64,000 nt of DNA from Helicobacter cetorum (GCA_022729755.1 DZAZ01000002.1:1926-65925), one strand, 5' to 3'. Counted from the first letter of the stretch, positions 8,043 through 39,476 are shown. The notes: generated by a model from the sequence alone, not told the origin. Translations and numbers: made by a program.

Positions 8043-10232
8043 ATGAGTAATGGTATTAATGTAATAACTCAAAAGAGATTGGAAGGTAGTGCGGTTTCAA
8101 TATCTTTTACAGATAAATATATGGTGGCTATAGATAATGCTTATGATATCTATCTTTTTTATAAAGAGGATTATAAAGTTTACAAAAGTACAAAATTATC
8201 AAAAAGCCACGAAGCAGGACACAGATATACTAAAGCTTTTTCTGTATCTGCAAATGAGTACTTTTGCATTCCATTATTTGGTACTTCAACAGCTGCATTA
8301 ATTCACTTTGAAGATGGATTTAAGAAGATAAAAACCCTAAATTGGCATAGTGCTGATATTGAAGTTTCAAAATTTTCCGATAAATTTTCATATTTTGCAA
8401 CAGGTGGGGCTGATGGAAAAATACTTATTTATGATACTGAAAGTGGAAATTTAATCTTATCACTTCCAAATAAACCAGATTATATATCTTGCATCTCTTT
8501 TGGAAACCATTCCGAATTCATAGTAATTGGTGCATTTGATAATAGTATTAGCATTTTTGATATTTCAAGAAATGAGGCTATTGCTGATTTTTTATTAACT
8601 GATGTAGTTGAGGGGTGCGAATTTTTCGATAACGATAGAAAATTATTTATTATTACAAGAGATGGATATTCAATTATTTATAATACAGAAAAAAAGCAAA
8701 TAGAAACTAAAAATAAAAATTTTAAAGAGTGGCCAACTTCAATAGCCTTTACCCCAGATGAAAAATTTATTTTAATTGGCACAAGACAAAAAACATTATA
8801 TGTCTTAACGACTGAAAATAATGAAATAGTTTTAGATGTTAAATTAAGTGGCATTGGAGTAGCGAGTTTAAAATTTTATGAAAAAAATTTATTAATTGGC
8901 TATATTGATGGTTCAATAGATATAATTGATTATTATATTTATGAAAAAGAGTTTGAAGAGTATATAAGTAAAAGAGAGTTTAATAAGGCAAGGGAATTAT
9001 TACTACAAAATGTATTTTTAAGAACGCATCCATTAGTTGAAAAGTTTAACGAATCTTGGGAGCATGTCGTAATTTTAGCAATAGAGATGATGGGAAAAGG
9101 TTTAGGCGATGAAGCTTTAAAAATGGTTGAGCCATTTTTGGATGACCCAAATAAAAGTGAAGAGTTTAAATTTTATTTGGAGCATAAAAATCACATTATT
9201 ACTTTTATCAATTCAGTTAGAAATAAAGATTTACTTGTGGCTTATGATTTGGTTGAAGATAATAAATTTTTAGAAAAACTTGAAGGTTACAAAGAGTTAG
9301 AAGGGGATTGGACAAAAGCTTTTAATGCCGCAAAAAAATTACTTCAAGAAGACCCTGAACTTAATCGTGGTAAAGCTTTGCAAATTTTAAAAGCTTATAC
9401 TGCACTTCCTGCTAAAAAACGACAAATCAACTTTTTAGTTAATAATGCTAAAAAATTTGGAGAGGCTGACCAATCTGTAAAAATTAAAGATTTCAAAAAA
9501 TATTTTCAAATGACTGAAACTTATCCATTTTTAAAAGAAGTTGATTTATACGACAAAGTGGTAACTTTTGGAGAAGGACTTTTAGTTAATTTATCTGGTT
9601 TTGAGCAAAAGCAAGATTATAAAAATGCACTTGGAATTGCCGCAAAATTACAATATTTTACACCTTTTGCTGAAGTAGTTGCTTCAAAAGTAAGACTTAT
9701 AAAAGCAAAATTAAAGTTTATAGAATCAGTTTCAATGAACAATGAAAAGTATGCTTATGAGCAAGTTGAAAAAATTCCAGAATTAAAAATGCTCCCACAA
9801 TTTGAAGAGTTAGAACATAAATTTAAAGTTGTTTTAGATGCCGCAAATCACGAAGCATTTCAAGGTTATCCTCAAAAAGTTTTAGAGAAGTTTAAAAATT
9901 ATATGTTTATCGATTATTGGTCTAGTAAAATTGGCTCTGTTATGAAACTTGCTTATTTAAATGAGTTAAAAGATAATGCTAGAGATAAAAGTATTATTTG
10001 GAAAGATAGTTTAATTGAGTATGTTACAAGATTTTCAAAAGACCCAGAAATTCAACAACTTTGTAAACAATTTAATAAAAGTGATGAGCTTGATGCTGTT
10101 GCAATTCAAGGCGATACAATGGGATATAAAAAGTATGAGTATTTAAAAAGTATTATTCTTAGAAAAAAAGAAGAAGCAAAATCTGAAGTTGATAAAATCA
10201 AAGAGAATTTTGATGTGAGTAAATTAATTTAA
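8043..10232 (+). CDS. WD40-repeat protein with a long helical C-terminal region
   Basis: Repeated WD-like units (GGADGKILIYD, GAFDNSISIFD, GYIDGSIDIID) in the first ~300 aa, followed by ~430 aa of helical/TPR-like sequence. Confidence 0.55.
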   Translation: MSNGINVITQKRLEGSAVSISFTDKYMVAIDNAYDIYLFYKEDYKVYKSTKLSKSHEAGHRYTKAFSVSANEYFCIPLFGTSTAALIHFEDGFKKIKTLNWHSADIEVSKFSDKFSYFATGGADGKILIYDTESGNLILSLPNKPDYISCISFGNHSEFIVIGAFDNSISIFDISRNEAIADFLLTDVVEGCEFFDNDRKLFIITRDGYSIIYNTEKKQIETKNKNFKEWPTSIAFTPDEKFILIGTRQKTLYVLTTENNEIVLDVKLSGIGVASLKFYEKNLLIGYIDGSIDIIDYYIYEKEFEEYISKREFNKARELLLQNVFLRTHPLVEKFNESWEHVVILAIEMMGKGLGDEALKMVEPFLDDPNKSEEFKFYLEHKNHIITFINSVRNKDLLVAYDLVEDNKFLEKLEGYKELEGDWTKAFNAAKKLLQEDPELNRGKALQILKAYTALPAKKRQINFLVNNAKKFGEADQSVKIKDFKKYFQMTETYPFLKEVDLYDKVVTFGEGLLVNLSGFEQKQDYKNALGIAAKLQYFTPFAEVVASKVRLIKAKLKFIESVSMNNEKYAYEQVEKIPELKMLPQFEELEHKFKVVLDAANHEAFQGYPQKVLEKFKNYMFIDYWSSKIGSVMKLAYLNELKDNARDKSIIWKDSLIEYVTRFSKDPEIQQLCKQFNKSDELDAVAIQGDTMGYKKYEYLKSIILRKKEEAKSEVDKIKENFDVSKLI

Positions 10233-10397
10233 GTTGAAATTTTTTTCATAAGTAATTTTTTTTCAAAATCTATATAAAAATATAAGGTATCTCAAAAGAG
10301 ATTTATTTGTCAAATCTCTCATTATAATCATACCTTTCTACACAAATATTAAAGAGAACGGTTATTGCTTTATGAAACTAAAAAAGGTTTTGAAATT

Positions 10398-11092
10398 ATG
10401 GAATTGAGATTAAAAAAAGATTTAATCAATTGGTGAAAAGTGCAATAAGTGTAAAAGAGAGAGCTACAAATGGGCTTAAACTATTGATTAAAAATGTTGA
10501 ATTGTTTTCACAAGTTCAAGCAAGTTGGAGGTTTTTCAATAATAATAGTGTAACAGTAGAAGCACTTTTTGATAAAATATCAGAAAATTTGGAGACAGAG
10601 ATAGATACTCATTGCGATAAATATCTATTGGCAATGTCAGATTGGTCACATTTGGATTATAAAAAGCATACATCAAAAAAAGAGCTAATATCTAAAAACA
10701 AAAAAGATAACTGTAAACAATTAGGCTATGATTTGCAAACAACAATAGCAGTGAGCGATAAGAGTGGACAGCCCATAGCACCGATAGTACATAACTTAAA
10801 AACAAGTAAGAAAGTTTATTCAACTTATGATAATAATATATCAAAAGAAGCTACACACTTAGAAGAGTTGGCTTTGCGAACTAGGTGGATAAAGGAAAAT
10901 TTAAATATAAAAAAACAGATAGTTCATATTGTAGATAGAGAGGCAGATAGTATCGCATTTATGCGGGAATTAGATAAAAATAACGAGAAGTTTCTCTTAA
11001 GAGTAACTAATACAAATAAAATTCACTATTTAGAAAACAATGAAGATATAAAACAGATAGATTTAGCCGATAAATTGGGACTTGGCAAGTAA
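10398..11092 (+). pseudogene. IS4-family (Tn5/IS50-like) transposase, frameshifted near the N-terminus and truncated after about half its length
   Basis: SWRFFNNNSVTVEAL, LLAMSDWSHLDY and IVHIVDREADSIAFMRELDKNNEKFLLR align by eye with Tn5 Tnp AYRFIRNPNVSAEAI, LLAIEDTTSLSY and VIAVCDREADIHAYLQDRLAHNERFVVR. The ATG at 10398 encodes MELRLKKDLINW then a stop, and the homology continues in another frame (KSAISV...). The ORF ends at ~220 aa, where ~450-480 aa would be expected. Confidence 0.75.
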
Positions 11093-11099
11093 TAATATA

Positions 11100-11180
11100 A
11101 CTCAAATCAAAACTTCAAAAAAAACAAGAGATTCTTTATTGCCAAAATTAATGAGCGGGAAAGTGATGGTGGAGATATGA
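11100..11180 (+). pseudogene. 3'-terminal remnant of a type I restriction specificity subunit (hsdS tail)
   Basis: A start-less frame reads ...ITQIKTSKKTRDSLLPKLMSGKVMVEI*. RDxLLPKLMSGxV is the typical C-terminal conserved helix of HsdS proteins. Its TGA overlaps the ATG of the first reverse transcriptase (ATGA). Confidence 0.35.
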
Positions 11181-12565
11181 AGCAATCGTTTAATGTTGAA
11201 AATTTTATAAAAATATATTATGACGAAAACAGAAAGGGTGATTATTTAGATGGTATATTTCAAGAATTTGGCGAATTAAAAGACATTGGACAAGAAATTA
11301 AACAAATCAATCAAAATTTTAGAGATAAAGTATATACAACACAAGCACAAAAAGAAACTGCAAATCAAAGAAAAGAGGAATTATTAAAAAGTAAATTTGA
11401 TAAGTTGGGAATAATATTATTAACTGTAGAAGAAAAAATCGATAAAAAAAACTATCACATATCTATGATTACTAAATCCATCAAAGGTAAAACAGTTTAT
11501 ACAATAGATAGAAGCAACATTGAAACATTTTTTTTATTTAAACAGATTCAAAAAAATATACAGCATTCATTTAAAGTAAAACAAGCTGATAGAAATAAAA
11601 TAGTATCTCAAGTAGTAAATATGCTTGATAATGGATTTCCAAAATATATTATAAGAACTGATATTACAAGCTTTTATGAGTCTATTCCTCATGATGAATT
11701 AAAAAAAGTCATAAGTAGAAATCATATACTAAGCCCATTATCTAAAAAAGTTATCAATGAAATCTTAAGACAATATCAGTCTATAACTGGTCAGGATAAA
11801 GGGATACCAAGAGGAATAGGCATAAGTGCTTATCTTGCAGAGTTGTATATGAGAGATTTTGATTATGACATCAAAAACTTGAATAATGTAACTTATTATG
11901 CAAGATATGTGGATGATATTATCATTATTTTTACACCAAATAATAAGTATGAAAGTATTGATTATTTAAGTTTGATAAAACAATGTATTTTAAAAACTAA
12001 ACTAAGTTTAAATGATAAAAAGACCGAAAAAATTGATTTTCTCAATATGAAAAGCTATAAACTAGAGTTTTTAGGATATCAAATTAATTTTAATCATATT
12101 AAAAAATTAGAGTATGAAATTAATATCAATCTTAGTCATAAAAAATTTAGAAAGTATCAAAGAAAAATACAATCAATGATAAACAACTACAATCTTTCAA
12201 GTAAATTTGATGAAAAAAAAGCAAGAAAACAAATGATTCGACAATTAAAATACTTAACTGGAAATATTAGATTTTTAGGAGTAAAAAAAGATATTCTAAT
12301 AGGAATTTACTTTTCAAATCAAAAATTATTTAAAACTGATAGTTTAGAAAAGCTTGATAATTACTTATATACAAAAATAGATAAACATGTAAAACCATAT
12401 ACAAAAATTACTTTAGATTTAATGCAATTAAAAGATAAGCTAAAAACTTATAGTTTTAAAAAAGGCTTTGAAGAAAAAATATTTTATAGATTTAAGAAAA
12501 GTAAATATATTAAATTTTCATCAAAAGACTTAGAAGAAATTTTATCTGGTTGGAAAAATTTATGA
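11177..12565 (+). CDS. Reverse transcriptase, defence-associated (UG3 / Drt3a-like)
   Basis: RT motif A TDITSFYESIPH, motif B GIPRGIGISAYLAELYM, catalytic motif C YARYVDDIIIIF and thumb-like LEFLGYQI and YLTG. Length 462 aa. No maturase, endonuclease or retron-type accessory domain. Confidence 0.8.
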   Translation: MKQSFNVENFIKIYYDENRKGDYLDGIFQEFGELKDIGQEIKQINQNFRDKVYTTQAQKETANQRKEELLKSKFDKLGIILLTVEEKIDKKNYHISMITKSIKGKTVYTIDRSNIETFFLFKQIQKNIQHSFKVKQADRNKIVSQVVNMLDNGFPKYIIRTDITSFYESIPHDELKKVISRNHILSPLSKKVINEILRQYQSITGQDKGIPRGIGISAYLAELYMRDFDYDIKNLNNVTYYARYVDDIIIIFTPNNKYESIDYLSLIKQCILKTKLSLNDKKTEKIDFLNMKSYKLEFLGYQINFNHIKKLEYEININLSHKKFRKYQRKIQSMINNYNLSSKFDEKKARKQMIRQLKYLTGNIRFLGVKKDILIGIYFSNQKLFKTDSLEKLDNYLYTKIDKHVKPYTKITLDLMQLKDKLKTYSFKKGFEEKIFYRFKKSKYIKFSSKDLEEILSGWKNL

Positions 12566-14586
12566 GCAAAAAATTTAAAAAGAAACAAAAAATTACATAC
12601 CTAAAAGAAAGAGCCGTTTTATCAGATACTCTGCCTTATGAAACACCAGCGATTTTTTCAAATAAATATTTTTATAGGTTTTTAATTCAAAATAAAATAG
12701 AAATACAAGATAGTGAAATTAGTTTTGATAATTCAAATCCAGATATTATTCAAATATTAAAACTTTTATTAAATGTTAATATTGATGACGGTCGAGCTCT
12801 TTTTAAAAAAAGTGAAAGAAATATTCCTTTTACTTTTAAAATTGCACATAAAAAAAATGATTTTAGAAATTTGTCTTTGATTCATCCATTAAATCAGTTG
12901 ATGGTTGTAGATTTTTATGATAAATATAAAGACAGTATAAGATACTTTTCAAATCAAAGTGAATTTTCAATTAGAAAACCATTTAAAATTGCAAAGAATA
13001 GATATATAAATGACTATCTTAAAAAGCAAAAAAAAGGACAAACCTCTCACAGTAAAATTGAGATACACGATAAAGAAGAAGAACACTTAAAAAGTTTTTT
13101 TACTTATAAAAAATACAGTAATATTCACGGATTCTTCGAGTCGTATGAATATCAAAGATGTGAAAAAAAATTTGAAAAACTTTATAAATTTGATATTAAT
13201 AAATGTTTTGACAGTATTTATACACATACTATTGCATGGGCACTTTTAAACAAGGAAATAGTAAAAGATAATTTAGATAAAAAATTAGATGCTACATTTG
13301 CAGGAAAGTTTGATAAATTGATGCAAAATATGAACTATGGAGAGACAAATGGCATTTTAATTGGTGCAGAAATTTCTCGCATATTTGCTGAGCTAATTTT
13401 ACAAAAAATAGATAAAAATGTACAAAATAAACTTAGAAAAAAATACGAATATTTGCATAAAACTCACTATGAAATTTTCAGATATATAGATGACTATTTT
13501 ATTTTTTATGATGACGAAGAAGTCAAGGATAAAATAATTGAAACTTTTAAACATGAATTAAAAGAATATAATTTATATGTCAGTGATACCAAAACAATTG
13601 AATTCGTAAAACCAATTATTACAGATTTGACAATTGCAAAAACAAAAATAACAGACTTGATAAATGAAAACTTTAGTTATAAAATAACAGACAATACAAC
13701 TGACGATGAAAAACAATGGAGTATTTCATTAAGATCTAGAGATGTTATAAAAAGATTTAAAATCATAATTAAAGAGACAAATATTGACTACAAAGATATT
13801 TTGAACTACTCAATTGCAACAATAGAGAAAAGATTTTTAAAAATAATTGAAAAACTTAAAAATTATGATAATCATCGGTTATATGTTGATATGTTTGTTG
13901 CTTTCACTATTCAGCTACTAGATTTTTTGTTTTTTATATATTCCGTATCACCTAGAGTTACATCGACTATTAAAATAGTTTCACTTATTAGTAAATTATT
14001 ACAATTTATCAAAGATGATAGATCGAATAAAAAAATACTAAAAAATTATCAAGTTGAATTAATTTATAAAAAAATTTATGATGAAATTTTTCAAATATTG
14101 AAAAAAAATAGATTAAAAGAATATACACAGAATGAAACATTGTATCTATTGCTTACATTGAATGAGTTAGCTAAAGATTACAGGCTAGATGCTGAGTTCT
14201 TAATTGAATATTTTTTTAATGATGGGATAGAACTAAATTACTTTGTAATAGTAAGTTTACTTTATTATATAAAGGATATTCGTCGGTATAGTGAAATAAA
14301 AATTAAGCTCTTAGAATGGATTGAAAATAAATTCAAAAATTGCAATATAGACCATTTGAGAAAAAATACAGAATTAACATTGTTGTTAATGGATTTAATG
14401 ACCTGCCCATATATTAGTAATTTAGATAGAAATAAATTTTTATCTTTAAATGGCATAACTGATTCAGCTATTCAAACTAAAATCATTTGCTTTTCATCAA
14501 AACAAAAATATTGGTTTATTAAATGGCAAGATTTTAACTTGGCTGAAGAGATAGAAATGAAAAAAAGTCAGGAAGTTTATAGCTGA
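12562..14586 (+). CDS. Second reverse transcriptase with a long helical C-terminal domain (UG8 / Drt3b-like, AbiA/AbiK class)
   Basis: Motif A FDINKCFDSIYTH, motif B NGILIGAEISRIFAELIL and motif C IFRYIDDYFIFY, followed by ~330 aa of helical repeat-like sequence. The ATG at 12562 overlaps the stop of the first RT (ATGA). The track's alternative TTG start is 12550. Confidence 0.75.
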   Translation: MSKKFKKKQKITYLKERAVLSDTLPYETPAIFSNKYFYRFLIQNKIEIQDSEISFDNSNPDIIQILKLLLNVNIDDGRALFKKSERNIPFTFKIAHKKNDFRNLSLIHPLNQLMVVDFYDKYKDSIRYFSNQSEFSIRKPFKIAKNRYINDYLKKQKKGQTSHSKIEIHDKEEEHLKSFFTYKKYSNIHGFFESYEYQRCEKKFEKLYKFDINKCFDSIYTHTIAWALLNKEIVKDNLDKKLDATFAGKFDKLMQNMNYGETNGILIGAEISRIFAELILQKIDKNVQNKLRKKYEYLHKTHYEIFRYIDDYFIFYDDEEVKDKIIETFKHELKEYNLYVSDTKTIEFVKPIITDLTIAKTKITDLINENFSYKITDNTTDDEKQWSISLRSRDVIKRFKIIIKETNIDYKDILNYSIATIEKRFLKIIEKLKNYDNHRLYVDMFVAFTIQLLDFLFFIYSVSPRVTSTIKIVSLISKLLQFIKDDRSNKKILKNYQVELIYKKIYDEIFQILKKNRLKEYTQNETLYLLLTLNELAKDYRLDAEFLIEYFFNDGIELNYFVIVSLLYYIKDIRRYSEIKIKLLEWIENKFKNCNIDHLRKNTELTLLLMDLMTCPYISNLDRNKFLSLNGITDSAIQTKIICFSSKQKYWFIKWQDFNLAEEIEMKKSQEVYS

Positions 14587-14681
14587 TGTATAATAAAATA
14601 GTAGTTCAAATCATCCCGAACAAAATAACTTCACACACAAATGTTTTAGTAAATGCTTTGATTAAAAAGGTATTTACTTAT

Positions 14682-14708
14682 AATGTAGCGAGTTCGGGCT
14701 ACATTTTT
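14682..14708 (+). terminator. Stem-loop plus T-run downstream of the RT pair
   Basis: aatgtagc-gagttcgg-gctacatt is an 8-bp stem followed by tttt at 14705-14708. Confidence 0.5.
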
Positions 14709-14761
14709 ATTAAGACACTTTTTCCACCTCTTAACAATGTGCTAAAAAGAGGGTTTTCTTT

Positions 14762-15706
14762 ATGAATAACACCCCACTATACAAAATTACATCAAAAATA
14801 CTAAAACTCTCCACTAAAATTAGTGAAGAGCTTACAAAACTTCAATTGAATGGTGCTACAAAAGTAAATCCAATGCTACGAAAAAAAAATCGTATCAAAA
14901 CATTAGCAGGGACTTTGGAGATAGAGGGTAATTTTTTAGGAGAAGCAAAAATTACAGCTATTTTGGATGGTAAAAGAGTTTTAGGAACTTTAAAAGAACT
15001 AGCTGAAGTAAATGGAGCTATAAAAGCCTATGAAAAACTTGATAAGTATAGATTTGATGAACTAGATGATTTACTTTTAGCACATAAAATTTTAATGAGT
15101 GATATTTTAACAACAGCAGGAAATTTTAGAAATGTGAATGTAAAAGTTGGTGAGCATATCGTTCCACAATCACATATAATAAATTACTTAATGAAAAATC
15201 TTTTTTATTGGCTAAAAAATAGTGATGAACATATGCTTTTAAAATCTTGTATATTTCACTATGAATTTGAATTTATACATCCGTTTTCAGATGGAAATGG
15301 CAGAATTGGAAGATTTTGGCAAAGTGTTATTTTAAATAGTTTTAATCCAATTTTCTCACTTCTACCAATTGAAAGTATAGTAAAAGACCATCAAGAAGAG
15401 TATTATAGTGCGATTGAAAATTCCACTGCACTTGGCGAAAGCGCTCCGTTTTGTGAATTTATGCTTGAGATGATATTAAAATCTATGCAAAACACTTTAA
15501 AAAGTGACCCAAAAAGTAACTATAAAAGTGACCAAAAAGTTTTATTACTAATGCAAGAGAATAGCAAAATTACTATAAATGAGCTGATGGGAAAACTCTC
15601 TATGAGCGAATCTGGTATTAAAAAAGTTATAAAAAAATTAAAAGATGAGGGGATTATAAAAAGAATTGGGAGCCTGAAATCAGGAGATTGGAAAGTAAAA
15701 ATATAA
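14762..15706 (+). CDS. Fic-family protein (AMPylase-type) with a C-terminal winged-helix domain
   Basis: Canonical Fic motif HPFSDGNGRIGR. N-terminal inhibitory-helix motif TLEIEG ([ST]xxxE[GN], class II). The C-terminal MarR/wHTH-like segment is INELMGKLSMSESGIKKVIKKLKDEGIIKR. Confidence 0.85.
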   Translation: MNNTPLYKITSKILKLSTKISEELTKLQLNGATKVNPMLRKKNRIKTLAGTLEIEGNFLGEAKITAILDGKRVLGTLKELAEVNGAIKAYEKLDKYRFDELDDLLLAHKILMSDILTTAGNFRNVNVKVGEHIVPQSHIINYLMKNLFYWLKNSDEHMLLKSCIFHYEFEFIHPFSDGNGRIGRFWQSVILNSFNPIFSLLPIESIVKDHQEEYYSAIENSTALGESAPFCEFMLEMILKSMQNTLKSDPKSNYKSDQKVLLLMQENSKITINELMGKLSMSESGIKKVIKKLKDEGIIKRIGSLKSGDWKVKI

Positions 15707-15716
15707 AGGAATTTAA

Positions 15717-16859
15717 ATGCTTAATATAATCGGTAATGGAATGAAGCCTTATGATTTAAAATATATTGATATAAATTTTAGCGATTTTGATATGGTAATT
15801 TGCGATAAAAATTTTATTGGTGAAGCTGAAAATTTATATAAACTTAGTTTTACTGAAGCTAAAGAGATGATTTTAGCAAATGCCAAAGAGAAAAATTTAC
15901 TCTATATTGTGAGTGGTTCGCCGTTATTTTATTCTGGTGCAACTGTTATTTTAAATCAACTTAAAAATGAAGATATAAATTTTAAAATTATCGATAATAG
16001 TTCCTCAAAAAGTTATCTTTTAGCAAAATTAGGAATTGCAGAAAACGAAATAAATTGCCTAAGTCTTCACGGAAGAGCTAAAATTGATTTAACTAAACTT
16101 TTAACTTTAAAATATACTTTTATTTTATGCGATGAATTTAGTATTAAGCGATTAAAAAAAGCCCTAAAATATGTGGATAATTTTAAAGTGACAATTGGCT
16201 CAAGATTAGGATATTTGGATGAGCTTATTAAAGAGATTGATTTAAATTTTAGAGCTAAAATGCCTTATGTTTTACTGATTGAGAGAAATTATGAGCCACT
16301 AAATACAATCTCAAAAGATGATGAGTTTGCAAAAGATAATGAAATGATTACAAAAGAGTATAAAAGACATCTTAGTTTGCAACTACTTGATTTAAGTCCA
16401 AATTTAACTCTTTGGGATATTGGTTCTGGAAGCGGTTCAATTTCGATTGATGGCTTTAAAAGATATAAAATAAAAACTTTTCTTTTTGAGAAAAATGAAA
16501 AAAGAGCCAAAGATATTGAGCAAAATTTAGCAACACATAAAGTAATTGATGCCGAATTAATCGTTGGAAATGCTAAAGATGAGATTAAAAAAATTGAACA
16601 AAATCCAGAGCGAATTTTTATCGGTGGAGGAGGAGAAGAGATTATTAGTGAATTAGTTTATTTATATGAGAGACTTGCTAAAAATGGAATTTTAGTTGCA
16701 AATTTTGTTACACTTTCACATTTAAGCCAAGCAATTGAAACTCTAAAAAGTGCTAAAATTGACTTTGAGATAAAGAGCATTTCACTCACAACTTATAAAA
16801 ACTCACTTTTAATTAGTGAGCCTGAACGAATACTATTTCAAATAAAGGTAGTTAAATGA
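15717..16859 (+). CDS. cobL: Precorrin-6Y C5,15-methyltransferase (decarboxylating), fused CbiE/CbiT
   Basis: N-terminal tetrapyrrole methylase-like half. The C-terminal half has the SAM-binding motif LWDIGSGSGSISI. Length 380 aa. It sits in an operon with cbiF. Confidence 0.7.
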   Translation: MLNIIGNGMKPYDLKYIDINFSDFDMVICDKNFIGEAENLYKLSFTEAKEMILANAKEKNLLYIVSGSPLFYSGATVILNQLKNEDINFKIIDNSSSKSYLLAKLGIAENEINCLSLHGRAKIDLTKLLTLKYTFILCDEFSIKRLKKALKYVDNFKVTIGSRLGYLDELIKEIDLNFRAKMPYVLLIERNYEPLNTISKDDEFAKDNEMITKEYKRHLSLQLLDLSPNLTLWDIGSGSGSISIDGFKRYKIKTFLFEKNEKRAKDIEQNLATHKVIDAELIVGNAKDEIKKIEQNPERIFIGGGGEEIISELVYLYERLAKNGILVANFVTLSHLSQAIETLKSAKIDFEIKSISLTTYKNSLLISEPERILFQIKVVK

Positions 16860-17566
16860 TATATTTTATTGGAGCAGGACCAGGTGACCCTGAACTTTTG
16901 ACTATTAAAGCCAAAAATATTCTTGAAAGAGCTGATATGATACTCTATACTGGAAGTTTAATTCCAAAAGAGATTTTATCATTTGCAAAAAAAGATGCAA
17001 TTATCAAATCTTCTGAAAGCTTAAAGTATGATGATATTTTTTATTGTCTCAAAAAATATGCAAACACAACTTTAGTTAGACTTCACACGGGTGACCCAAG
17101 TTTATACTCAACTATTGCAAAACAGATTGAATTTTTAAAAAGAGAAAAAATTGCTTATGAGGTAATTCCTGGAGTTAGTGCAAGTTTTGGTGCAAGTGCA
17201 TCTTTAGGGATTGAATACACAATTCCAGGAGTTTCGCAAACTTTGATTTTAACAAGAATTGAGGGGAACACTCCAAATCCTGAACAGTTAGAAAATATTT
17301 TAAATTGCAAAAACTCTTCAATTGTTTTTTATCTCTCAATCAATTTAATTGCAAAATTAAAAGAGGTTGCTTATAAGTTAAATTATCCAAAAACAACTCC
17401 TTGTTGGGTGATTGAGCGGGCTACTTGGGTTAATGAGAAAGTTTATAAAGGCACGATTGAAGATATTGAAGAGCAAGTAAAAGATATAAATGGGATTGCA
17501 CTAATTCTTTTTGGAGAATTTTTAAATCAAAAAGAAGCCGTTTCGTCGCATCTTTATAGAGTATAA
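16856..17566 (+). CDS. cobM: Precorrin-4 C11-methyltransferase
   Basis: IYFIGAGPGDPELLTIKA...ADMILYTGSLIP is the CbiF/CobM N-terminal signature. Its start overlaps the upstream stop. Confidence 0.8.
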   Translation: MIYFIGAGPGDPELLTIKAKNILERADMILYTGSLIPKEILSFAKKDAIIKSSESLKYDDIFYCLKKYANTTLVRLHTGDPSLYSTIAKQIEFLKREKIAYEVIPGVSASFGASASLGIEYTIPGVSQTLILTRIEGNTPNPEQLENILNCKNSSIVFYLSINLIAKLKEVAYKLNYPKTTPCWVIERATWVNEKVYKGTIEDIEEQVKDINGIALILFGEFLNQKEAVSSHLYRV

Positions 17567-17569
17567 ATT

Positions 17570-18322
17570 TTGAAATTAAAAGTTGTTATAATTTATGATG
17601 GAAGTGAATTTTTTGGCTCACAACTTCAAAAAAATAAAAAAAGTGTAATTGGTGAAATAAAAAAGGCACTAAAACTTTTAAATATTAACTCTCAAATTAA
17701 TGCAAGTGGTCGAACGGATGCTGGAGTTCACTCTACAAATCAAGTAATTGATTTTGAAGTACCAAATTATTGGAATGATTTGAATAAGCTTAAAGATGTA
17801 TTAAATAAAATTTTAATGCCAAATATTTATATAAAAAAGATTGAGGAAGTTTGCGAAACTTTTCATTCTAGGTTTTTGGCTAAAAAACGAACTTATCGAT
17901 ATATAATAACCACAAAAAAATTTAATCCATTTGAAGCAAAATATGTAAGCTTTATAAGTAAAATTGATGAAGTTAAAATAAAAGAAGCTATCAAACTCTT
18001 TGAAGGTGTGTATAATTTCAAGTATTTTAAAAAGTCAGGAAGTGGAAATATTAGCGATATTAGAGAAATTTATAAAACTATGTTTTATAAATATAAAGAG
18101 TATTATATTTTCTATTTTGAAGCAAACTCATTTTTAAGAGCTCAAATAAGATTTATGGTAGCTTTTTTACTAGAAATTTCAGATAATAATTTGACAAAAG
18201 ATGATTTAAAACTTCAGTTAAATTTAATAAAAAACTTCAAGTTAAAACCAGCTCCACCAAATGGCTTATATTTAAGCAAAGTTAAATATTCCCCACTTAA
18301 AAAAGTGGGGATGAATTTATAA
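17570..18322 (+). CDS. truA: tRNA pseudouridine(38-40) synthase
   Basis: Catalytic motif SGRTDAGVHS. Length 250 aa. Confidence 0.8.
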   Translation: MKLKVVIIYDGSEFFGSQLQKNKKSVIGEIKKALKLLNINSQINASGRTDAGVHSTNQVIDFEVPNYWNDLNKLKDVLNKILMPNIYIKKIEEVCETFHSRFLAKKRTYRYIITTKKFNPFEAKYVSFISKIDEVKIKEAIKLFEGVYNFKYFKKSGSGNISDIREIYKTMFYKYKEYYIFYFEANSFLRAQIRFMVAFLLEISDNNLTKDDLKLQLNLIKNFKLKPAPPNGLYLSKVKYSPLKKVGMNL

Positions 18323-24689: not shown

Positions 24690-25739
24690 GTGAAAATTAA
24701 AAAAATCGAAATAGAACATTTTAAACATTTAAGAGATATAAAAATAGATAATATTGGAGATTATCTATTAATCATAGGAGATAATAAAGCAGGAAAAAGT
24801 ACACTTCTTCAAGCTATAGCTTTAACAGTTGAATTAGCAACGGGAGTTATTAAAAATAGAAGTGAGTTTCATTGGGGAAATATACTATTAGAACAAGATA
24901 GAATTGATACTTTTAATATTAACATTATATTGGAATTAGATAGAGAAGAGATTAAAAATACTATAGAGTTATCTAATAAAATTGAAAGAAAAAATAAAAT
25001 AAATTTAGATCAGTTTTTGAATAAAAATAGTTTAGAAATTGAATTAAAGTTTGACAATAGCAAAAATAAACCATTTATTTATCCTAAAGATAGAATGTAT
25101 CTATTATCTGGTAGGTCATATTTAGCTCAACTTATTAGTCAAGACAGAATTAATTCAGAAAATAGATTAAATTATTATAAAAATATTGGAGGGGTTTATA
25201 AATTTAATTATAATAGAGTTTATCCAATTTCTCTTTACCATAAACAAGAAACAAATTTAAAATCTTTAAAAGTACAATTAAGAAACTTATGGAGTACACA
25301 TAAATCAGAAGCTAAAAATGAAAATATTCCAGATTGGATTAATGAAATAACAGAAAAATTTAAAAATGTTTTTAATGGCTTTAGAATGTTAGGTCCAGTA
25401 TTAAAAAGTAATGAATTAGTTGATACAGATGATTTTTACTTTTATGTAGAAGATGGTGAAAAAAATAAGTATGATATTGAAGAGTTTTCAAGTGGAGAAG
25501 AGACACTTTTTAAAATGATTTGGCATAGTGTAGTATTTTCTATGTTTAAATCTATTATTTTAATAGATGAAATTGAACTTCATTTAAGTGAAATGGAACA
25601 AAAGAAACTATTTTTAAATTTAAAAAAAATCTTTCCAAATTCTCAATTTATAATCACAACTCACTCAAGATACTTTTCAGAACAGATTTTTAGTGAAGAT
25701 GATATTGTTGTTTTAGAAAATGGTAAGAGGATAGGTTAG
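24690..25739 (+). CDS. ABC/AAA_15-21-type ATPase, AriA-like
   Basis: Walker [10 protein letters not shown] (res 30-38), signature-like FSSGEE, Walker [12 protein letters not shown] and H-loop TTHS. GTG start 3 nt after the upstream stop. Confidence 0.65.
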
Positions 25740-26479
25740 TGAGTAAATTTGATTTAAGTTTAAGTAAAAGTAGAGAACTTATCATAGAAGGAATTAAAGG
25801 AAGTTTTGATTATAAATTTTACTCTAAAGTTTTAAGAGGTATTTTTGGTAATTTTGAACCTTGTGGTAGTCAAAAGTGTATAATTGAAATAGCAAAAAAC
25901 AAAAATGCTTATTCACTTCAAGATAGAGATTATAAAGATATGGAAGATAGTAATTTAGACTCTATTTTTACTCAAAATAAGTTAGTTTCAAAAGAAAATA
26001 AATCATTTAAGTTAAAACACACTGAAATTGAAAATATACTGCTACTTGCAATAGATGAAAAATTTAATATAAATTTAAAAAATATAATTTTAAGTAACTT
26101 AAATATTTTAATAGAAGCTACAGCTATTAGAATAGTAAAATCAAAAAGTTTAGAACCATTCTTTAAATTTAGATATAACTATTTAGAGTTTAATAATTGT
26201 AATATCAACTTATTGTTAAGAGATATAAATAGAATTGAAATAAGCCCATTAATAAATCGTTGGAAACGTGTATTAAAAGATTTTATTGATAACAATTTCG
26301 ATAAAGCAATGATTATTTTATCAGGTAAAGATATTTGGAAATTTATAGAAAATTGTGATAAATACAGTATAGATTTAAATAAACATTTTAAAGATACTTT
26401 TGATAAAACAGATAATAGCGAAATGTTAAAAATTAGTATAGTTAAAAAATTAAAAGATGACATAGAGAGTTTATTGTAA
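25739..26479 (+). CDS. DUF4435 / Toprim-like nuclease, AriB-like
   Basis: LIIEG (E17-G18), LQDRDY (D62-x-D64) and TEIENILL (E96-x-E98-N99) follow the DUF4435/OLD-type Toprim motif order. The start overlaps the ATPase stop (TAGTG). Confidence 0.6.
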   Translation: MSKFDLSLSKSRELIIEGIKGSFDYKFYSKVLRGIFGNFEPCGSQKCIIEIAKNKNAYSLQDRDYKDMEDSNLDSIFTQNKLVSKENKSFKLKHTEIENILLLAIDEKFNINLKNIILSNLNILIEATAIRIVKSKSLEPFFKFRYNYLEFNNCNINLLLRDINRIEISPLINRWKRVLKDFIDNNFDKAMIILSGKDIWKFIENCDKYSIDLNKHFKDTFDKTDNSEMLKISIVKKLKDDIESLL

Positions 26480-35853: not shown

Positions 35854-37302
35854 TTACAAAGATGTAACCCCAACTCTTGAAATGTGATAAGCAATATTAT
35901 GTTGAATATCATTAACTAACTCTTTTCTTGCTCTAAATAGCAACTTAAGATTCTCAAGTGTTTTAGGATTTAATCCAAATATATGTCTTAAACTAAGCAA
36001 TAAAATATAATTTTGACTTTCATAATTAAATGAGAATCCACTTTTATAAAAATTATCTAACTTTTTTATACACTGTTTATCAAATGGAACTAAATAACCA
36101 AATATTAACCTTGATTTTTTAAATTTATTATTTGAATAGTCACAATATGGAGTGAATTCTATTAAAATTGGTTTGATGGAATCTAAAGTATCTTGTTTTG
36201 TTTTATTTTTAATTCTTTCATTATATTCATCTTTAGCTTCATTTTGTTGTTTTTCAAGTTCACTTTTATATTTTGAATTATAATCATAAATTTCATCTTC
36301 AAAAATTTTTTTATAATCATCATATCCACAAACATTTTCGTTTAATTTATCACAAATATTTAAATAACTCTCAAAACAAAATATATTTCCTGGATACATT
36401 TTTTTATTACTAGATAATGGAATCTCAAACAAAAGTTTGCTATTAACAATATATGTGTTTTCATTATTTTTAACTTGTAAATCTAAATTTTTTAAAGTGT
36501 TATTTGTAGTTTCATTAGAGTTTGAATCTTCAACACTTTTTTCTATTGTGTCTTGAAGTACCATATTTAAAGCTGTATATAAACCTTTTCTTTTCTCTTC
36601 TTTGTTTGGAGATTGATTAGTTCCGACTATTGACTTAATAGCTCCATTTAATAAATCTCGATTTTTATCTTGATTCTCTATATCTAAAAACATATCAAAT
36701 ACTTTTGCACTTGATTTTTGTATTTGGCTCTCCCACTCTCTTAATAGATTGAAATAGTCTAAATTTTGATTTAAAGAATTTTTTATATCGTTAATTAAAT
36801 AATTGATAGATTTATTGCAAAAAATATTAAAATGGTGTTGATAATCAGCTAAAGTTAATTCTTTTTTATTTATACACCATTTCATTTGTTCAAATTTTTT
36901 TATAATGTTAATTTCATTTTTTTTATAATCATTTTTATCTAAAGTAACTATTGGATAAAATTTATATTTTCTCTCTTTTAATTTATCAATTAAAACATTT
37001 CTCAGTTCATTATGTTTTGACCATATTATTAATATAAATGCTCCATTATCCTCAGATAAATTTCTTGTTATTGATGAGTATATAGGAGAAATCGTACTTT
37101 TGTTAGAACTACTAATTTTATCATCTAATGTTAAATCAGCAAAAATATACCTAACATTGGTGAATTTATTTTTCTTTTTACTCGTTTTAAAGTTAATGTA
37201 AATACTTTGAATACCAATATCATCTAATGCTTCTCTTAAATTTTGTATTTCTTCAGGTTTATCATCAAAAATTAAAACTTTTGTATTATTTACACTATTC
37301 AC
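35854..37302 (-). CDS. Receiver (REC)-like domain protein with an uncharacterised ~350-aa C-terminal region; third gene of the dcm operon
   Basis: The N-terminus reads KVLIFDD (D13-D14)...YIFADLTL (D56)...LIIWS (S95)...K, which follows the CheY-like acidic pocket, phospho-acceptor, Ser/Thr and Lys order. The rest has no motif I recognise. The start overlaps the upstream stop (ATGA at 37299-37302). Confidence 0.45.
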   Translation of the reverse strand: MNSVNNTKVLIFDDKPEEIQNLREALDDIGIQSIYINFKTSKKKNKFTNVRYIFADLTLDDKISSSNKSTISPIYSSITRNLSEDNGAFILIIWSKHNELRNVLIDKLKERKYKFYPIVTLDKNDYKKNEINIIKKFEQMKWCINKKELTLADYQHHFNIFCNKSINYLINDIKNSLNQNLDYFNLLREWESQIQKSSAKVFDMFLDIENQDKNRDLLNGAIKSIVGTNQSPNKEEKRKGLYTALNMVLQDTIEKSVEDSNSNETTNNTLKNLDLQVKNNENTYIVNSKLLFEIPLSSNKKMYPGNIFCFESYLNICDKLNENVCGYDDYKKIFEDEIYDYNSKYKSELEKQQNEAKDEYNERIKNKTKQDTLDSIKPILIEFTPYCDYSNNKFKKSRLIFGYLVPFDKQCIKKLDNFYKSGFSFNYESQNYILLLSLRHIFGLNPKTLENLKLLFRARKELVNDIQHNIAYHISRVGVTSL

Positions 37303-39476
37303 TTTAATTCTCCTTTTTTAAATTCTAAAGCTATTGTCGCACCGTCAATAAAATCTTCTTCTAAATTCAAGTTTTTTATTTTATATTCTTTATTAGTAAT
37401 AATTTTTAAAGCACCTAAATTTTGCTTCATTATTTCATTAGAGAAGTACAAACCAAGACCTTTTCCAAATTCATTTTTTGTAGTTTTAAATGGTAATTTT
37501 GCAATATCTTCTGATATGGAAAATCCTAATCCATTGTCAGCTATTATTAATTCTATTGAATTTTCTTTTTCAAAAACATCTATTAAAATTTTTCTATCTT
37601 TAATCATCTTTTTATAATCTAGCCAATAAATTGAATTATCAAACAAATTCATTAAAACTTGATTAGTCAATTTAGGAAAACAATTAATATAAAATTTTTT
37701 ATCATTTGTTTTATCAATTAATTTTATTTTATGGTCTTCAAATCTTGCTTCAAAATATATCATACACATTTCTATTAACTCATTAACTAATGTATTTTTT
37801 TGTTTATCATTTTCTAAAAATTTTGCAACTCCTTCAATTATAGTTGATAATGAAATAGCTATTTTTTCTATATCATCAAAATTTTTACTTTTAATAGTTT
37901 TGTTTAAAGAGTGAACTATTTTTTCAATTTCGTGTATTACTAAACTATATGCAAGTCCTGCACCTGAACTTTTCAATACAATATCTTTCATACTATTATA
38001 ATTTTCTTCTACTTTTTCAATAAGATGGATAACTTCATCTCTCTTTTTTTCATCAGGAATATATTTTGTAAGCTTTTCCTTACTCTCTTCTATAATTGCT
38101 AATGTATCTCTATCACTATCTTGTTCTTTTGCATATTGTGTTCTAAATTTATCTTTATCTTCATTTTTTAAAAAATTTACTTTATTTATGATATTAATTA
38201 CTATATCTCTAAAGTTATAATAAATTTTATCTTCAATAAATCCTTCACGATTTGTCTTTTCAACTAATCCACTGCTGTTTTTCCCATCTAAAAATACAGA
38301 TGATATAATATTTCTATTTCCTATCTTTGAAGTTGGAGCGTTGATTCTACTTGCATCCATTCCAAGCCAATCATTGCCTTCCTCTCCATAATCATAAATT
38401 CTCATTCCATCTCTATATACTCTTACACCACCATTTTCTTTAACAAAACTTTTCAAACCACTTCTATCAGATATGTTACTTAAATCTAATGTAGTTTTAT
38501 CAAAATCAAATATGTAACCTTTTATATCTATCTCTTTAATACCATCAAATGGTATATCTTCAAATTTATCTCTATTTTTTTCTTGTTTCTCTTTTTCTAT
38601 CTCTCTTCTAATAAAGGGATTTTTTGCTATATATTCATCAACTTCTGTAACTTCTCTAGCTTCTGCTCTTTCCATATACCTATATGGTTGAAATTTATAT
38701 TTAAAGTTTGTAACTTTACTTATTTTATTTCCATTCTCATCTTCAACTTCACTTGCCTTACATTCAAAATACCATAAAGCATATCTTTTTAAAGTCTCTA
38801 ATGATAATAATCCCTCTTTCCAATCTTCTAAATTTGTCTCTATCTCTATATTAAAATTATCTCTTGTTTCAAATGGAGAAGTTAAAGCAAAAATAGAGCG
38901 ATATAACTCTCTAAAGTCTCGTTTACTCCACTCTTTTCTTAAATTTGTAACTCTAATATATGTACCTTTCTCTTCACCAATAAAGAAAGAGGCTTTTCTC
39001 TCTTTTAGAGTAATTAGTTTATCTGATAAATACTCATCACCACTAAATTCACTCCAATCAATGCTTAAAACTACCTCTTTTGAGTTGGCTTTTTTTGTAA
39101 TTAACTCTATCTTATTTCCAAGTTTATGTACACCAAATCTACCAATTCCCTTTTCGCCGATTGGTCTTCTATTACAATCACTTATAAAGTTTTCACTATT
39201 TTTTTCCTCTTTATTATTAGTTCCAGGTTCCATCCAAATATTATTGATAATATCTATATCCATTCCAAAACCATCATCAATAATAATTATTTCTCCATTA
39301 GTTAAGTTATCAATATCATTCATTATAACTTTTACATTTCTTGCACAAGCATCATAAGAGTTTTTGATAATTTCTGAAAGTGCAATTTTTTCATTTCTAA
39401 TAAGTTGGTCACCAAGTTGTAAAAGCAATCTTGCTTTTGGTTTAAATGGTGTGGTAACTTCTTTGTACTCTAACAT
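37299..39476 (-). CDS. Dual Bergerat-fold ATPase: N-terminal MORC/Hsp90-like GHKL module plus C-terminal histidine-kinase core (DHp + CA)
   Basis: N-terminal motifs are ALSEIIKNSYDA (E35, N39, D42), IIIIDDGFGM (D68-G-x-G71) and GEKGIGRFG (~107-115). C-terminal motifs are the H-box VIHEIEKIVHSL (His515, codon 37932-37934), N-box LMNLFDNSIYW, G1 ADNGLGF and G2 GKGLGL. The start overlaps the dcm stop. Confidence 0.65.
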   Translation of the reverse strand: MLEYKEVTTPFKPKARLLLQLGDQLIRNEKIALSEIIKNSYDACARNVKVIMNDIDNLTNGEIIIIDDGFGMDIDIINNIWMEPGTNNKEEKNSENFISDCNRRPIGEKGIGRFGVHKLGNKIELITKKANSKEVVLSIDWSEFSGDEYLSDKLITLKERKASFFIGEEKGTYIRVTNLRKEWSKRDFRELYRSIFALTSPFETRDNFNIEIETNLEDWKEGLLSLETLKRYALWYFECKASEVEDENGNKISKVTNFKYKFQPYRYMERAEAREVTEVDEYIAKNPFIRREIEKEKQEKNRDKFEDIPFDGIKEIDIKGYIFDFDKTTLDLSNISDRSGLKSFVKENGGVRVYRDGMRIYDYGEEGNDWLGMDASRINAPTSKIGNRNIISSVFLDGKNSSGLVEKTNREGFIEDKIYYNFRDIVINIINKVNFLKNEDKDKFRTQYAKEQDSDRDTLAIIEESKEKLTKYIPDEKKRDEVIHLIEKVEENYNSMKDIVLKSSGAGLAYSLVIHEIEKIVHSLNKTIKSKNFDDIEKIAISLSTIIEGVAKFLENDKQKNTLVNELIEMCMIYFEARFEDHKIKLIDKTNDKKFYINCFPKLTNQVLMNLFDNSIYWLDYKKMIKDRKILIDVFEKENSIELIIADNGLGFSISEDIAKLPFKTTKNEFGKGLGLYFSNEIMKQNLGALKIITNKEYKIKNLNLEEDFIDGATIALEFKKGELK

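Follow-up and report, generated by a model that had tools for sequence, protein, structure and literature searches.

A probable DRT3 antiphage cassette of two reverse transcriptases and a non-coding RNA at an apparent restriction-modification relic in a Campylobacterota chromosome

Introduction

DRT3 is an antiphage system of paired reverse transcriptases (RTs) of the UG3 and UG8 families, and an Escherichia coli representative is known (Gao et al. 2020). The present analysis concerns a putative DRT3 locus in a stretch of 64,000 nucleotides (nt) deposited as Helicobacter cetorum (GCA_022729755.1, DZAZ01000002.1:1926-65925), which in its full length is referred to here as the window. Positions 11177-14709 of the window very probably (we put the probability at about 0.88) contain a complete and apparently intact canonical three-part cassette, drt3a-drt3b-ncRNA, in which a non-coding RNA (ncRNA) follows the two RT genes and for which an antiphage mechanism can be predicted by homology. 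An earlier sequence-only reading of the window had picked out the two RT genes and had called the mechanism of DRT3 poorly understood, a statement that is now outdated as two studies from 2026 describe the mechanism in E. coli.

The canonical UG3-UG8-ncRNA layout with its conserved CACACA motif was described by Mestre et al. 2022 (PMC9226505). In E. coli, DRT3a copies a 5'-ACACAC-3' loop of the ncRNA, which is encoded downstream of drt3b, into poly(dT-dG), and DRT3b forms a hexamer that is primed on residue Y666 and synthesises poly(dC-dA) without a nucleic-acid template, with E22 and R241 serving as nucleotide gates aided by R71. The two strands anneal to double-stranded DNA (dsDNA) which is restrained by RecBCD, and the phage RecBCD inhibitor Gam leads to abortive infection. 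Both YxDD motifs are needed for defence, and the hairpin that abuts the template in ncRNAs of the E. coli type is stem-loop 4 (Wang et al., bioRxiv 10.64898/2026.05.04.722794). In the summary given in PMC13314766, Deng et al. 2026 describe a 6:6:6 particle of Drt3a, Drt3b and ncRNA, with an ncRNA-templated poly(dT-dG) strand and a protein-primed, protein-templated poly(dC-dA) strand. The E. coli system requires just the two RTs and the ncRNA (10.64898/2026.05.04.722794; PMC13314766). Solved DRT3 structures are available as PDB entries 9z6y and 9z6z (Deng et al. 2026) and 26cz (Wang et al. 2026).

The reverse transcriptase pair

The sequence-only reading had described two ATGA-coupled open reading frames (ORFs), the first of 462 amino acids (aa), with complete RT motifs A, B and C including the catalytic YVDD and YIDD, and this description is borne out by the ORF coordinates, the junction sequence and the motifs themselves. 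Two consecutive ORFs are listed on the + strand, ORF1 (drt3a) at 11177-12565 and ORF2 (drt3b) up to a stop at 14586 (Table 1). At the junction, which reads ...TTTATGAGC..., the drt3b ATG (12562-12564) overlaps the drt3a TGA (12563-12565) in the arrangement TTT-ATGA-GC. Counted from this ATG the second protein has 674 aa and not the 675 aa first given; an alternative upstream TTG at 12550 would lengthen it to 678 aa, and the identical protein in the public NCBI records (P0001) has 674 aa. Motifs A, B and C read DITSFY, PRGIGIS and YVDD in drt3a, and the RT motifs of drt3b are KFDINKCF, NGILIGAEISRIFAE and YIDD. With 66.2 bits for ORF1 and 41.6 bits for ORF2, both products score above the Pfam RVT_1 gathering score of 29.6, and the RT domain match of both is far beyond chance. 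The long helical C-terminal extension that had been noticed on the second RT also has a structural counterpart, as Drt3b aligns to chain 9z6y_H of the solved complex over residues 16-672.

The assignment of the pair to DRT3 is supported by family profiles and by solved structures alike. Against the curated NCBI equivalog models, ORF1 scores 363 bits with NF041747 (Drt3a, cut-off 200) across profile positions 2-412 of 412, and ORF2 scores 721 bits with NF041748 (Drt3b, cut-off 350) across the full profile 1-647. A PADLOC scan, which had been proposed as a check, ranks Drt3a first for ORF1 (7.8e-103) and Drt3b first for ORF2 (5.1e-194, 644 bits). The second-best models are RT_UG17 for ORF1 (2e-29) and Drt6, UG14, AbiP2, Drt4 and AbiK for ORF2, which implies that a Class 2 RT is followed by a Class 1 RT. 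The best PDB matches found with phmmer are likewise solved DRT3 chains, 9z6y_A for Drt3a (1.4e-24) and 26cz_A (1.6e-84) followed by 9z6y_H (2.2e-75) for Drt3b.

For comparison, 80 loci in which a relative of Drt3b (39-86% identity) is encoded were gathered from Bacteroidota, Pseudomonadota, Campylobacterota and other groups. The order drt3a then drt3b, adjacent and co-oriented, is found in 79 of the 80, the exception being a contig that ends 62 nt upstream of drt3b. All the sequence features by which membership of DRT3 was judged are present in the window, namely both family scores, the adjacency of the genes, both YxDD motifs, the gating residues and priming tyrosine of Drt3b, and a downstream ncRNA with ACACAC.

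The functional residues of Drt3b were located by alignment to 26cz, in which the chain is a SUMO fusion with a numbering offset of 108, an offset that was checked by D182 and I183 landing on KLDIAKCF. Beyond the gating and priming residues given in Table 1, the E. coli residues R71, D182, F187 and Y276-D279 correspond to R102, D211, F216 and Y308-D311 of the window protein. In an alignment of 21 Drt3b homologs (48-86% identity) the residues E27, R102, D211, F216, R273, Y308, D310, D311 and Y673 are invariant, and the last or penultimate residue of Drt3b is a tyrosine in 80 of 80 related loci. As judged from these alignments, the catalytic, gating and priming residues of Drt3b that were tested in E. 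coli are all kept here.

Table 1. Positions in the window of the predicted DRT3 cassette, its functional elements and its immediate neighbours
Feature	Position	Strand	Basis
drt3a (UG3, Class 2 RT), 462 aa	11177..12565	+	ORF listing, NCBIfam NF041747, PADLOC, PDB match
drt3a catalytic YVDD, aa 244-247	11906-11917	+	motif reading
drt3b (UG8, Class 1 RT with alpha-repeat C-terminal domain), 674 aa	12562..14586	+	ORF listing, NF041748, PADLOC, PDB
drt3b catalytic YIDD, aa 308-311	13483-13494	+	motif reading
Drt3b E27 (E22 in E. coli DRT3b; dATP gate), LPYE motif	12640..12642	+	26cz alignment
Drt3b R273 (R241 in E. coli DRT3b; dCTP switch), SRIFAE motif	13378..13380	+	26cz alignment
Drt3b Y673 (penultimate; Y666, the priming tyrosine, in E. 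coli DRT3b)	14578..14580	+	C-terminus ...SQEVYS, then stop
DRT3 ncRNA, ~106 nt, starting 18 nt past the drt3b stop	14604..14709	+	covariance model R1, 80.5 bits
Template motif ACACACA in a loop closed by P1, predicted poly(dT-dG) template	14633..14639	+	sequence
P1, AAUCAU (14609-14614) with AUGUUU (14641-14646), one U-U mismatch	14609..14646	+	RNAalifold
Pseudoknot, CCGAAC with GUUCGG (3' hairpin loop)	14616-14621 / 14692-14697	+	complementarity, covariation
Internal 12-bp stem-loop, 14648-14659 with 14667-14678, loop GAUUAAA	14648..14678	+	minimum free energy (MFE) fold
3' hairpin AAUGUAGC-GAGUUCGG-GCUACAUU, 14682-14689 with 14698-14705, then UUUU	14682..14709	+	terminator-like site scan
hsdS 3' relic (type I restriction-modification), ending ...SNNITQIKTSKKTRDSLLPKLMSGKVMVEI, then stop; TGA overlaps the drt3a ATG	11088..11180	+	DNA alignment to L088 and L089
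Truncated IS4-family transposase gene, 220-aa ORF	10430..11092	+	NF033590
Fic and winged helix-turn-helix (HTH) gene	14762..15706	+	Pfam Fic 4.9e-22, HTH_24

The ncRNA downstream of drt3b

The account of the cassette as a two-gene unit given in the sequence-only reading holds for the two RT genes, which both lie on the + strand, and it missed the essential third component, the ncRNA at 14604-14709 which lies in the 175 nt that separate drt3b from the following gene. An ACACAC hexamer is found 23-131 nt past the drt3b stop in each of the 80 related loci; the chance of meeting a given hexamer is ~7% per 300 nt. When the loci are anchored on this motif they share a common layout consisting of the 5' strand of a helix P1, a pseudoknot strand, a linker, the template, the 3' strand of P1, a stem-loop, and a terminator-like hairpin with a U-tract. 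In the window, P1 encloses the 5' strand of the pseudoknot, an 11-nt linker (14622-14632) and the template.

A covariance model of the ncRNA, R1, was built from the RNAalifold consensus of 12 sequences which lack a hairpin next to the template, and includes P1, the stem-loop and the 3' hairpin. R1 matches 51 of 81 sources (934 kb searched), in each case directly 3' of drt3b and on the same strand. Within the window its sole strong match is the one at 14604-14709, the two others being weak (17 bits, E ~0.06), and the score of 80.5 bits is in part given by construction because the window sequence belongs to the seed. L085 and L086, DRT3 loci on plasmids of E. coli and Vibrio, gave no match with R1, though CACACAC is present downstream of drt3b in both; being seeded on hairpin-less ncRNAs, the model is too narrow for those types.

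The fold is supported by comparison rather than by stability, since the MFE fold of the single sequence is unremarkable (z = -1.8). In the alignment of the 51 matching sequences, 89.8% of cells are paired when the pseudoknot is included, against 67.6% in shuffles and 41-50% with slid partners, and 30 of 31 pairs show changes on both sides. P1 is paired in 89.6% of cells with changes on both sides in 6/6 pairs, the consensus helix of the internal stem-loop (helix 3) covaries in 11/11 pairs, and in the 3' hairpin (helix 4) 98.8% of cells are paired and 8/8 pairs have changed on both sides; this alignment was fitted to R1 for these three helices. The pseudoknot lies outside the model and its covariation therefore provides an independent test, in which 85% of cells are paired and five of the six pairs covary. 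Its variants include CCGUCU/GGACGG, UCGUCU/GGACGA, CCGCUC/GAGCGG and CAGUCU/GGACUG. Close relatives of the window cassette occur in four Campylobacterota loci, L087 (Sulfurimonas lithotrophica, CP043617.1), L088 (a metagenome-assembled genome (MAG) of Aliarcobacter butzleri), L001 and L089. In L001 the pseudoknot reads CUGAAC/GUUCAG, a compensatory change with respect to the CCGAAC/GUUCGG of the window, and the strands of the 3' hairpin are AAUGUAGC/GCUACAUU in the window versus AAUACAGC/GCUGUAUU in L088. The 6-bp form of the pseudoknot is not universal, as a few lineages (L055, L058, L047 and L090) carry two central mismatches. By this comparative evidence the ncRNA is present, rightly placed and template-bearing, and its fold covaries.

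A scan of 9500-16500 with Rfam 15 assigned no family to the ncRNA, and the only hit was a chance match to snoR124 inside drt3a (E 0.84, 26.5 bits against a threshold of 70). In the literature covered a pseudoknot in the DRT3 ncRNA is not mentioned; the ribonucleoprotein structure of Deng et al. 2026, which lies outside that literature, may already include one. Small ORFs have been or could be called over the ncRNA at several of the loci, with 59 aa at 14586-14765 (+) of the window, 53 aa at 6067-6228 of L088 and 74 aa at 6028-6252 of L089. None of these has a family match, and they are probably spurious gene calls in a region that evolves by compensatory base-pair changes.

Across 81 loci the ncRNAs fall into two classes. 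In 44 of them a hairpin of 4-8 bp stands directly 5' of the template, and in the other 37 this place is taken by an A/U-rich single-stranded linker. The window ncRNA belongs to the hairpin-less class, and the copy on the E. coli plasmid (L085) to the hairpin class. L001, the Drt3b of which is 86% identical to that of the window, has gained a template-adjacent hairpin, GCUCAUUGAGC, by an insertion of 9 nt.

Flanks and history of the locus

The window contains the housekeeping genes nusA, a tilS-like gene, rimO, cobalamin genes, truA and flagellar hook genes. The named homologs of its RimO (~65% identity) all come from Campylobacterota, namely Sulfurimonas, Arcobacter, Halarcobacter and Aliarcobacter, and metagenomic homologs reach 77-82%; the cassette is accordingly read as chromosomal and its host, in agreement with the sequence-only reading, as an uncultured member of a sparsely sampled Campylobacterota lineage. 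The G+C content of the cassette is 23%, compared with 27.7% for the whole window and 28-30% for the flanks of the cassette, and this low value is consistent with a horizontal origin.

When positions 9000-18000 were compared by blastn with five relatives, homology (78-87% identity) began at 11093, 11128 or 11177 and ended at 14707-14713. These limits coincide with drt3a-drt3b-ncRNA and thus define the boundaries of a three-part unit. In L001, L087, L088 and L089 this unit is embedded in a type I restriction-modification (R-M) operon with the order hsdM-hsdS-drt3a-drt3b-ncRNA-[variable gene]-hsdR, in which the variable gene encodes a Fic-HTH, PemK, AlbA_2/HATPase_c_4 or RhuM protein. In these four loci drt3a follows hsdS directly, with a few bases of overlap or a short gap, which suggests that the two genes are co-transcribed. 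In the broader set Sulfurimonas Hsd queries found a match in 3 of 80 loci, so that the R-M embedding is either specific to this clade or involves Hsd proteins too divergent for those queries.

Relics of the same arrangement flank the window cassette and had been overlooked in the earlier reading, these being a 3' remnant of hsdS and a truncated IS4 transposase gene. The hsdS relic comprises the last ~30 codons, ends in ...TRDSLLPKLMSGKVMVEI and a stop, and abuts or is fused to the truncated transposase ORF; its translation matches the C-terminal ends of HsdS in L088 and L089 (...TRDTLLPKLLSGEIKVEL and ...LRDSLLPKLLSGEVRVKI, each followed by the stop). The transposase ORF matches NF033590 over profile positions 1-174 of 405 (3.1e-14, 52.8 bits, below the cut-off of 160). 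No hsdM, hsdS or hsdR gene is detectable elsewhere in the 64-kb window. The ancestor of the cassette lay within a type I R-M operon; in the window the truncated IS4 transposase gene has taken the place of hsdM and of most of hsdS. It looks as if a deletion associated with the insertion sequence took hsdM and most of hsdS, with hsdR also gone, leaving the locus as the relic of an R-M-embedded defence islet.

Further upstream, at 8043-10232 (+), lies a gene for a 729-aa WD40 beta-propeller protein which has 10 homologs at E <= 1e-20 among 5.8 billion proteins, one of them named 'WD40 repeat protein' by JGI. In relatives the synteny with rimO upstream of this gene is kept and downstream the genes differ, which places the DRT3 islet at a synteny break. 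A search for an empty site by way of the WD40-gene homologs (L081-L084) yielded no clean one, the downstream synteny not being conserved. The window contains no tRNA or tmRNA genes, and integration linked to a tRNA was rejected on this ground.

Intact cassette or silent relic

The same history gives rise to the strongest alternative, that the locus is a silent or decaying relic in which the deletion and the IS event removed the operon promoter and left the genes heading for pseudogenisation. The ~30-codon hsdS remnant joined to a transposase gene that breaks off at ~174 of 405 positions, the disappearance of hsdM, hsdS and hsdR from the rest of the window, the position of drt3a right behind hsdS in the four relatives with its suggestion of co-transcription, and the failure to find a promoter-like site just upstream of drt3a all speak for it. 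Against it, drt3a and drt3b are full length and free of frameshifts or stops, the functionally critical residues are all intact, and the ncRNA keeps its template and all of its helices. The cassette DNA is 86-87% identical to that of L001 and L089, such that constraint is not visibly relaxed, and the truncated transposase ORF is co-oriented with the cassette and could provide read-through transcription. On balance a dead locus is unlikely, and the reading of an apparently intact DRT3 cassette is preferred.

A number of observations nevertheless count against this preferred reading. With the loss of hsdM and hsdS the native promoter may also have been lost, which makes expression uncertain, and no sigma-70-like promoter was found in 10579-11624 by a scan that covers Campylobacterota promoters poorly. 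P1 of the window carries a U-U mismatch, and as the ncRNA has no hairpin abutting the template, control of the template boundary may differ. The trigger logic of the E. coli system turns on RecBCD, and the studied Campylobacterota relatives have AddAB instead; the guarded nuclease and the phage trigger could therefore differ from those in E. coli, and the window lineage is probably without RecBCD. Campylobacter jejuni is reported to depend on AddAB (PMC5665897). Motif C of Drt3b reads YIDD here, with isoleucine at position 309, whereas 90% or more of the homologs in the alignment have YVDD; the equivalent position in E. coli DRT3b, V277, touches the sugar of the -1 nucleotide (10.64898/2026.05.04.722794). 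The exchange is a conservative one.

The Fic neighbour and other assignments

A second alternative would make the downstream Fic-HTH gene a dedicated effector or regulator and the locus a four-component variant of DRT3. The gene begins 52 nt past the ncRNA on the same strand, with cbiE starting 10 nt after its end, and its product matches the PADLOC SoFic model at 2.3e-40 over most of the profile, as against 53.5 bits with the NCBIfam SoFic model, for which the cut-off is 550. Orthologs also follow DRT3 in L089 (84% aa identity) and L087 (71%). In equally close relatives, however, the slot is occupied by other genes (PemK and a small ORF in L088, the AlbA_2/HATPase_c_4 protein in L001), DNA homology with these two loci ends at the end of the ncRNA, and even in L089 ~336 bp and two small ORFs separate the ncRNA from fic. 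A Fic gene directly downstream of drt3b is found in 0 of 80 other loci, and E. coli DRT3 is complete with its two RTs and ncRNA. A role of Fic as a DRT3 component was rejected as very improbable, given that the occupant of the slot changes among close relatives and is not Fic in distant ones. The three-part cassette is the reading retained.

That the RT pair belongs to another class of retroelement (a group II intron, a retron, a diversity-generating retroelement or a single RT of the Abi type) can be dismissed as next to impossible, since the generic matches of both proteins to Pfam RVT_1 and their weak matches to TIGR04416, Drt2, Drt4 and AbiK are set against PADLOC scores for Drt3a and Drt3b that are 3-5 times those of any alternative (for ORF2, AbiK 83 and Drt4 105 versus Drt3b 644 bits), values of 85 and 44 bits for the group II intron RT/maturase model TIGR04416 (cut-off 300), 65 bits for NCBIfam Drt2 (cut-off 390) and 101 for Drt4 (cut-off 450), and an Rfam scan of 9500-16500 that yielded neither an intron, a retron msr nor any other family. 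Clustering with introns or retrons and a want of RT profile support, which had been named beforehand as the outcomes to look out for, are thus not what these scores and the Rfam scan show, and the profile scores already point to placement in the UG3 and UG8 clades. No maturase domain was found with Pfam, and no intron family with Rfam in the same interval. Retron RT models are absent among the PADLOC matches listed, which for Drt3a are the best 25 of 32 and for Drt3b the complete set of 23, and PDB chains labelled 'Retron-type reverse transcriptase' match only at ~5e-5. Scans with PADLOC, Pfam, Rfam and NCBIfam agree with the earlier statement that maturase, endonuclease, Cas and retron accessory domains are missing from the pair.

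A stand-alone Class 1 RT system such as AbiK, AbiA or Drt4 was ruled out, as the best profile of ORF2 is Drt3b and the RT is paired with Drt3a and the ncRNA. A search of a phage collection did not find DRT3-carrying phages, and returned only a distant Class 1 RT from Erysipelothrix phage SE-1 (26% identity).

Proposed working of the cassette

The products, assembly, trigger and defence phenotype proposed for the window locus are those that we infer by homology to E. coli DRT3. Drt3a would bind the ncRNA and repeatedly copy its looped ACACAC(A) at 14633-14639 into poly(dT-dG). Drt3b, primed on its own Y673, would add alternating dC and dA without a nucleic-acid template, with E27 and R273 as the gates and R102 in support. 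The complementary strands would then anneal to a poly(GT/AC) DNA duplex. A host exonuclease acting on dsDNA would be expected to keep the level of this duplex low, such that inhibition of the nuclease by a phage could allow the duplex to accumulate and bring about abortive infection.

It is tempting to go a step further and to see in the window a variant that combines a hairpin-less 'minimal' class of ncRNA, with the pseudoknot as a possible template-boundary or scaffold element, a different guard nuclease, and a layered defence wired to R-M. This proposal is tentative, and the odds are against it.

Implications and further observations in the window

The kind of system is already known, and what the cassette adds is an annotation of the ncRNA with its covarying pseudoknot, a hairpin-less class of ncRNA, and the context of an R-M relic. 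For annotation, the RT pair should be named drt3a and drt3b, and the 59-aa ORF at 14586-14765 should give way to an ncRNA feature at 14604-14709. The ncRNA alignment and covariance model, together with a pseudoknot that covaries across phyla, could seed an Rfam family. As a divergent natural variant with YIDD, an ncRNA without the hairpin and a host that is probably RecBCD-less, the cassette could help to show whether what was found in E. coli on the template boundary and the guarding nuclease holds more widely. The locus also documents an R-M-embedded defence cassette that has outlived its R-M genes, and the translational coupling of hsdS and drt3a in this clade, if true, could mean that the two defences are layered and co-regulated.

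Two other gene clusters in the window are of note. At 24690-26479 (+) an AAA_15 ATPase gene (PADLOC PtuA 7.8e-25, also AriA/NsnB-like) precedes a 246-aa ORF of no family in a stretch of low G+C (0.22-0.24), and the two may form an ATPase-based defence pair. At 35854-40708 (-) a C5 cytosine DNA methyltransferase (DrmMII/MTase_II 1.3e-164), a 725-aa HATPase_c_3 protein (with a weak REase_II match, 1.1e-11) and a 482-aa ORF of no family are encoded in what looks like a restriction-modification-like cluster.

Comparison with known systems

The closest counterparts of the window cassette are the R-M-embedded cassettes of L087, L088, L001 and L089. A DRT3 system had been thought notable for Campylobacterota, which it is not, since Drt3b homologs that are 80-88% identical are found in Sulfurimonas lithotrophica, in the Aliarcobacter butzleri MAG and in other Epsilonproteobacteria, and some Campylobacterota Drt3b homologs already bear the NCBI name 'antiviral reverse transcriptase Drt3b'. 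The four cassettes share with the window this level of Drt3b identity, a DNA identity of 78-87%, the type of ncRNA and, in L087 and L089, the downstream Fic-HTH gene. They differ in that hsdM-hsdS upstream and hsdR downstream are kept, whereas the window retains ~30 hsdS codons next to a truncated IS4 gene.

E. coli DRT3 shares with the window the order drt3a-drt3b-ncRNA on one strand, the pairing of a Class 2 RT with an alpha-repeat-bearing Class 1 RT, YxDD in both RTs, the equivalents of E22, R71, R241 and Y666 in Drt3b, and an ncRNA directly 3' of drt3b with ACACAC in a loop. In the window Drt3b carries YIDD in place of the E. coli YVDD, the host belongs to Campylobacterota, in which AddAB may replace RecBCD, and the setting is a type I R-M relic. 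The one homolog found on an E. coli plasmid, which is annotated as split, has only 38% aa identity to the window Drt3b (tblastn), and the plasmid ncRNA has a hairpin at the template, GGCUGUUGGCAGCC-gCACACAC, that is missing from the window ncRNA. On this IncY plasmid (L085, CP083496.1, 6594-8637) the Drt3b homolog appears as two coding sequences named 'hypothetical protein' and the tblastn match comes in two pieces; the gene is probably frameshifted or mis-annotated, and the region downstream retains the hairpin-CACACAC motif of the ncRNA.

More distant parallels exist on the side of each RT. DRT10 (UG17) and DRT9 (UG28) also use a Class 2 RT and a short looped ncRNA template that is copied repeatedly in a telomerase-like manner, and RT_UG17 is the second-best model for Drt3a; they are single-RT systems (DRT10 with a SLATT effector) that have no protein-templated second RT and differ in their templates and products. 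AbiK, Drt4 (UG15) and AbiP2 resemble Drt3b in joining an RT to an alpha-repeat domain and in protein priming, with PADLOC values of 1e-24 to 1e-33 and a match to PDB 7r08 at 2.2e-15. Unlike these enzymes, which act alone and make random or other untemplated DNA, Drt3b would produce a strictly alternating dC-dA strand in company with Drt3a and the ncRNA.

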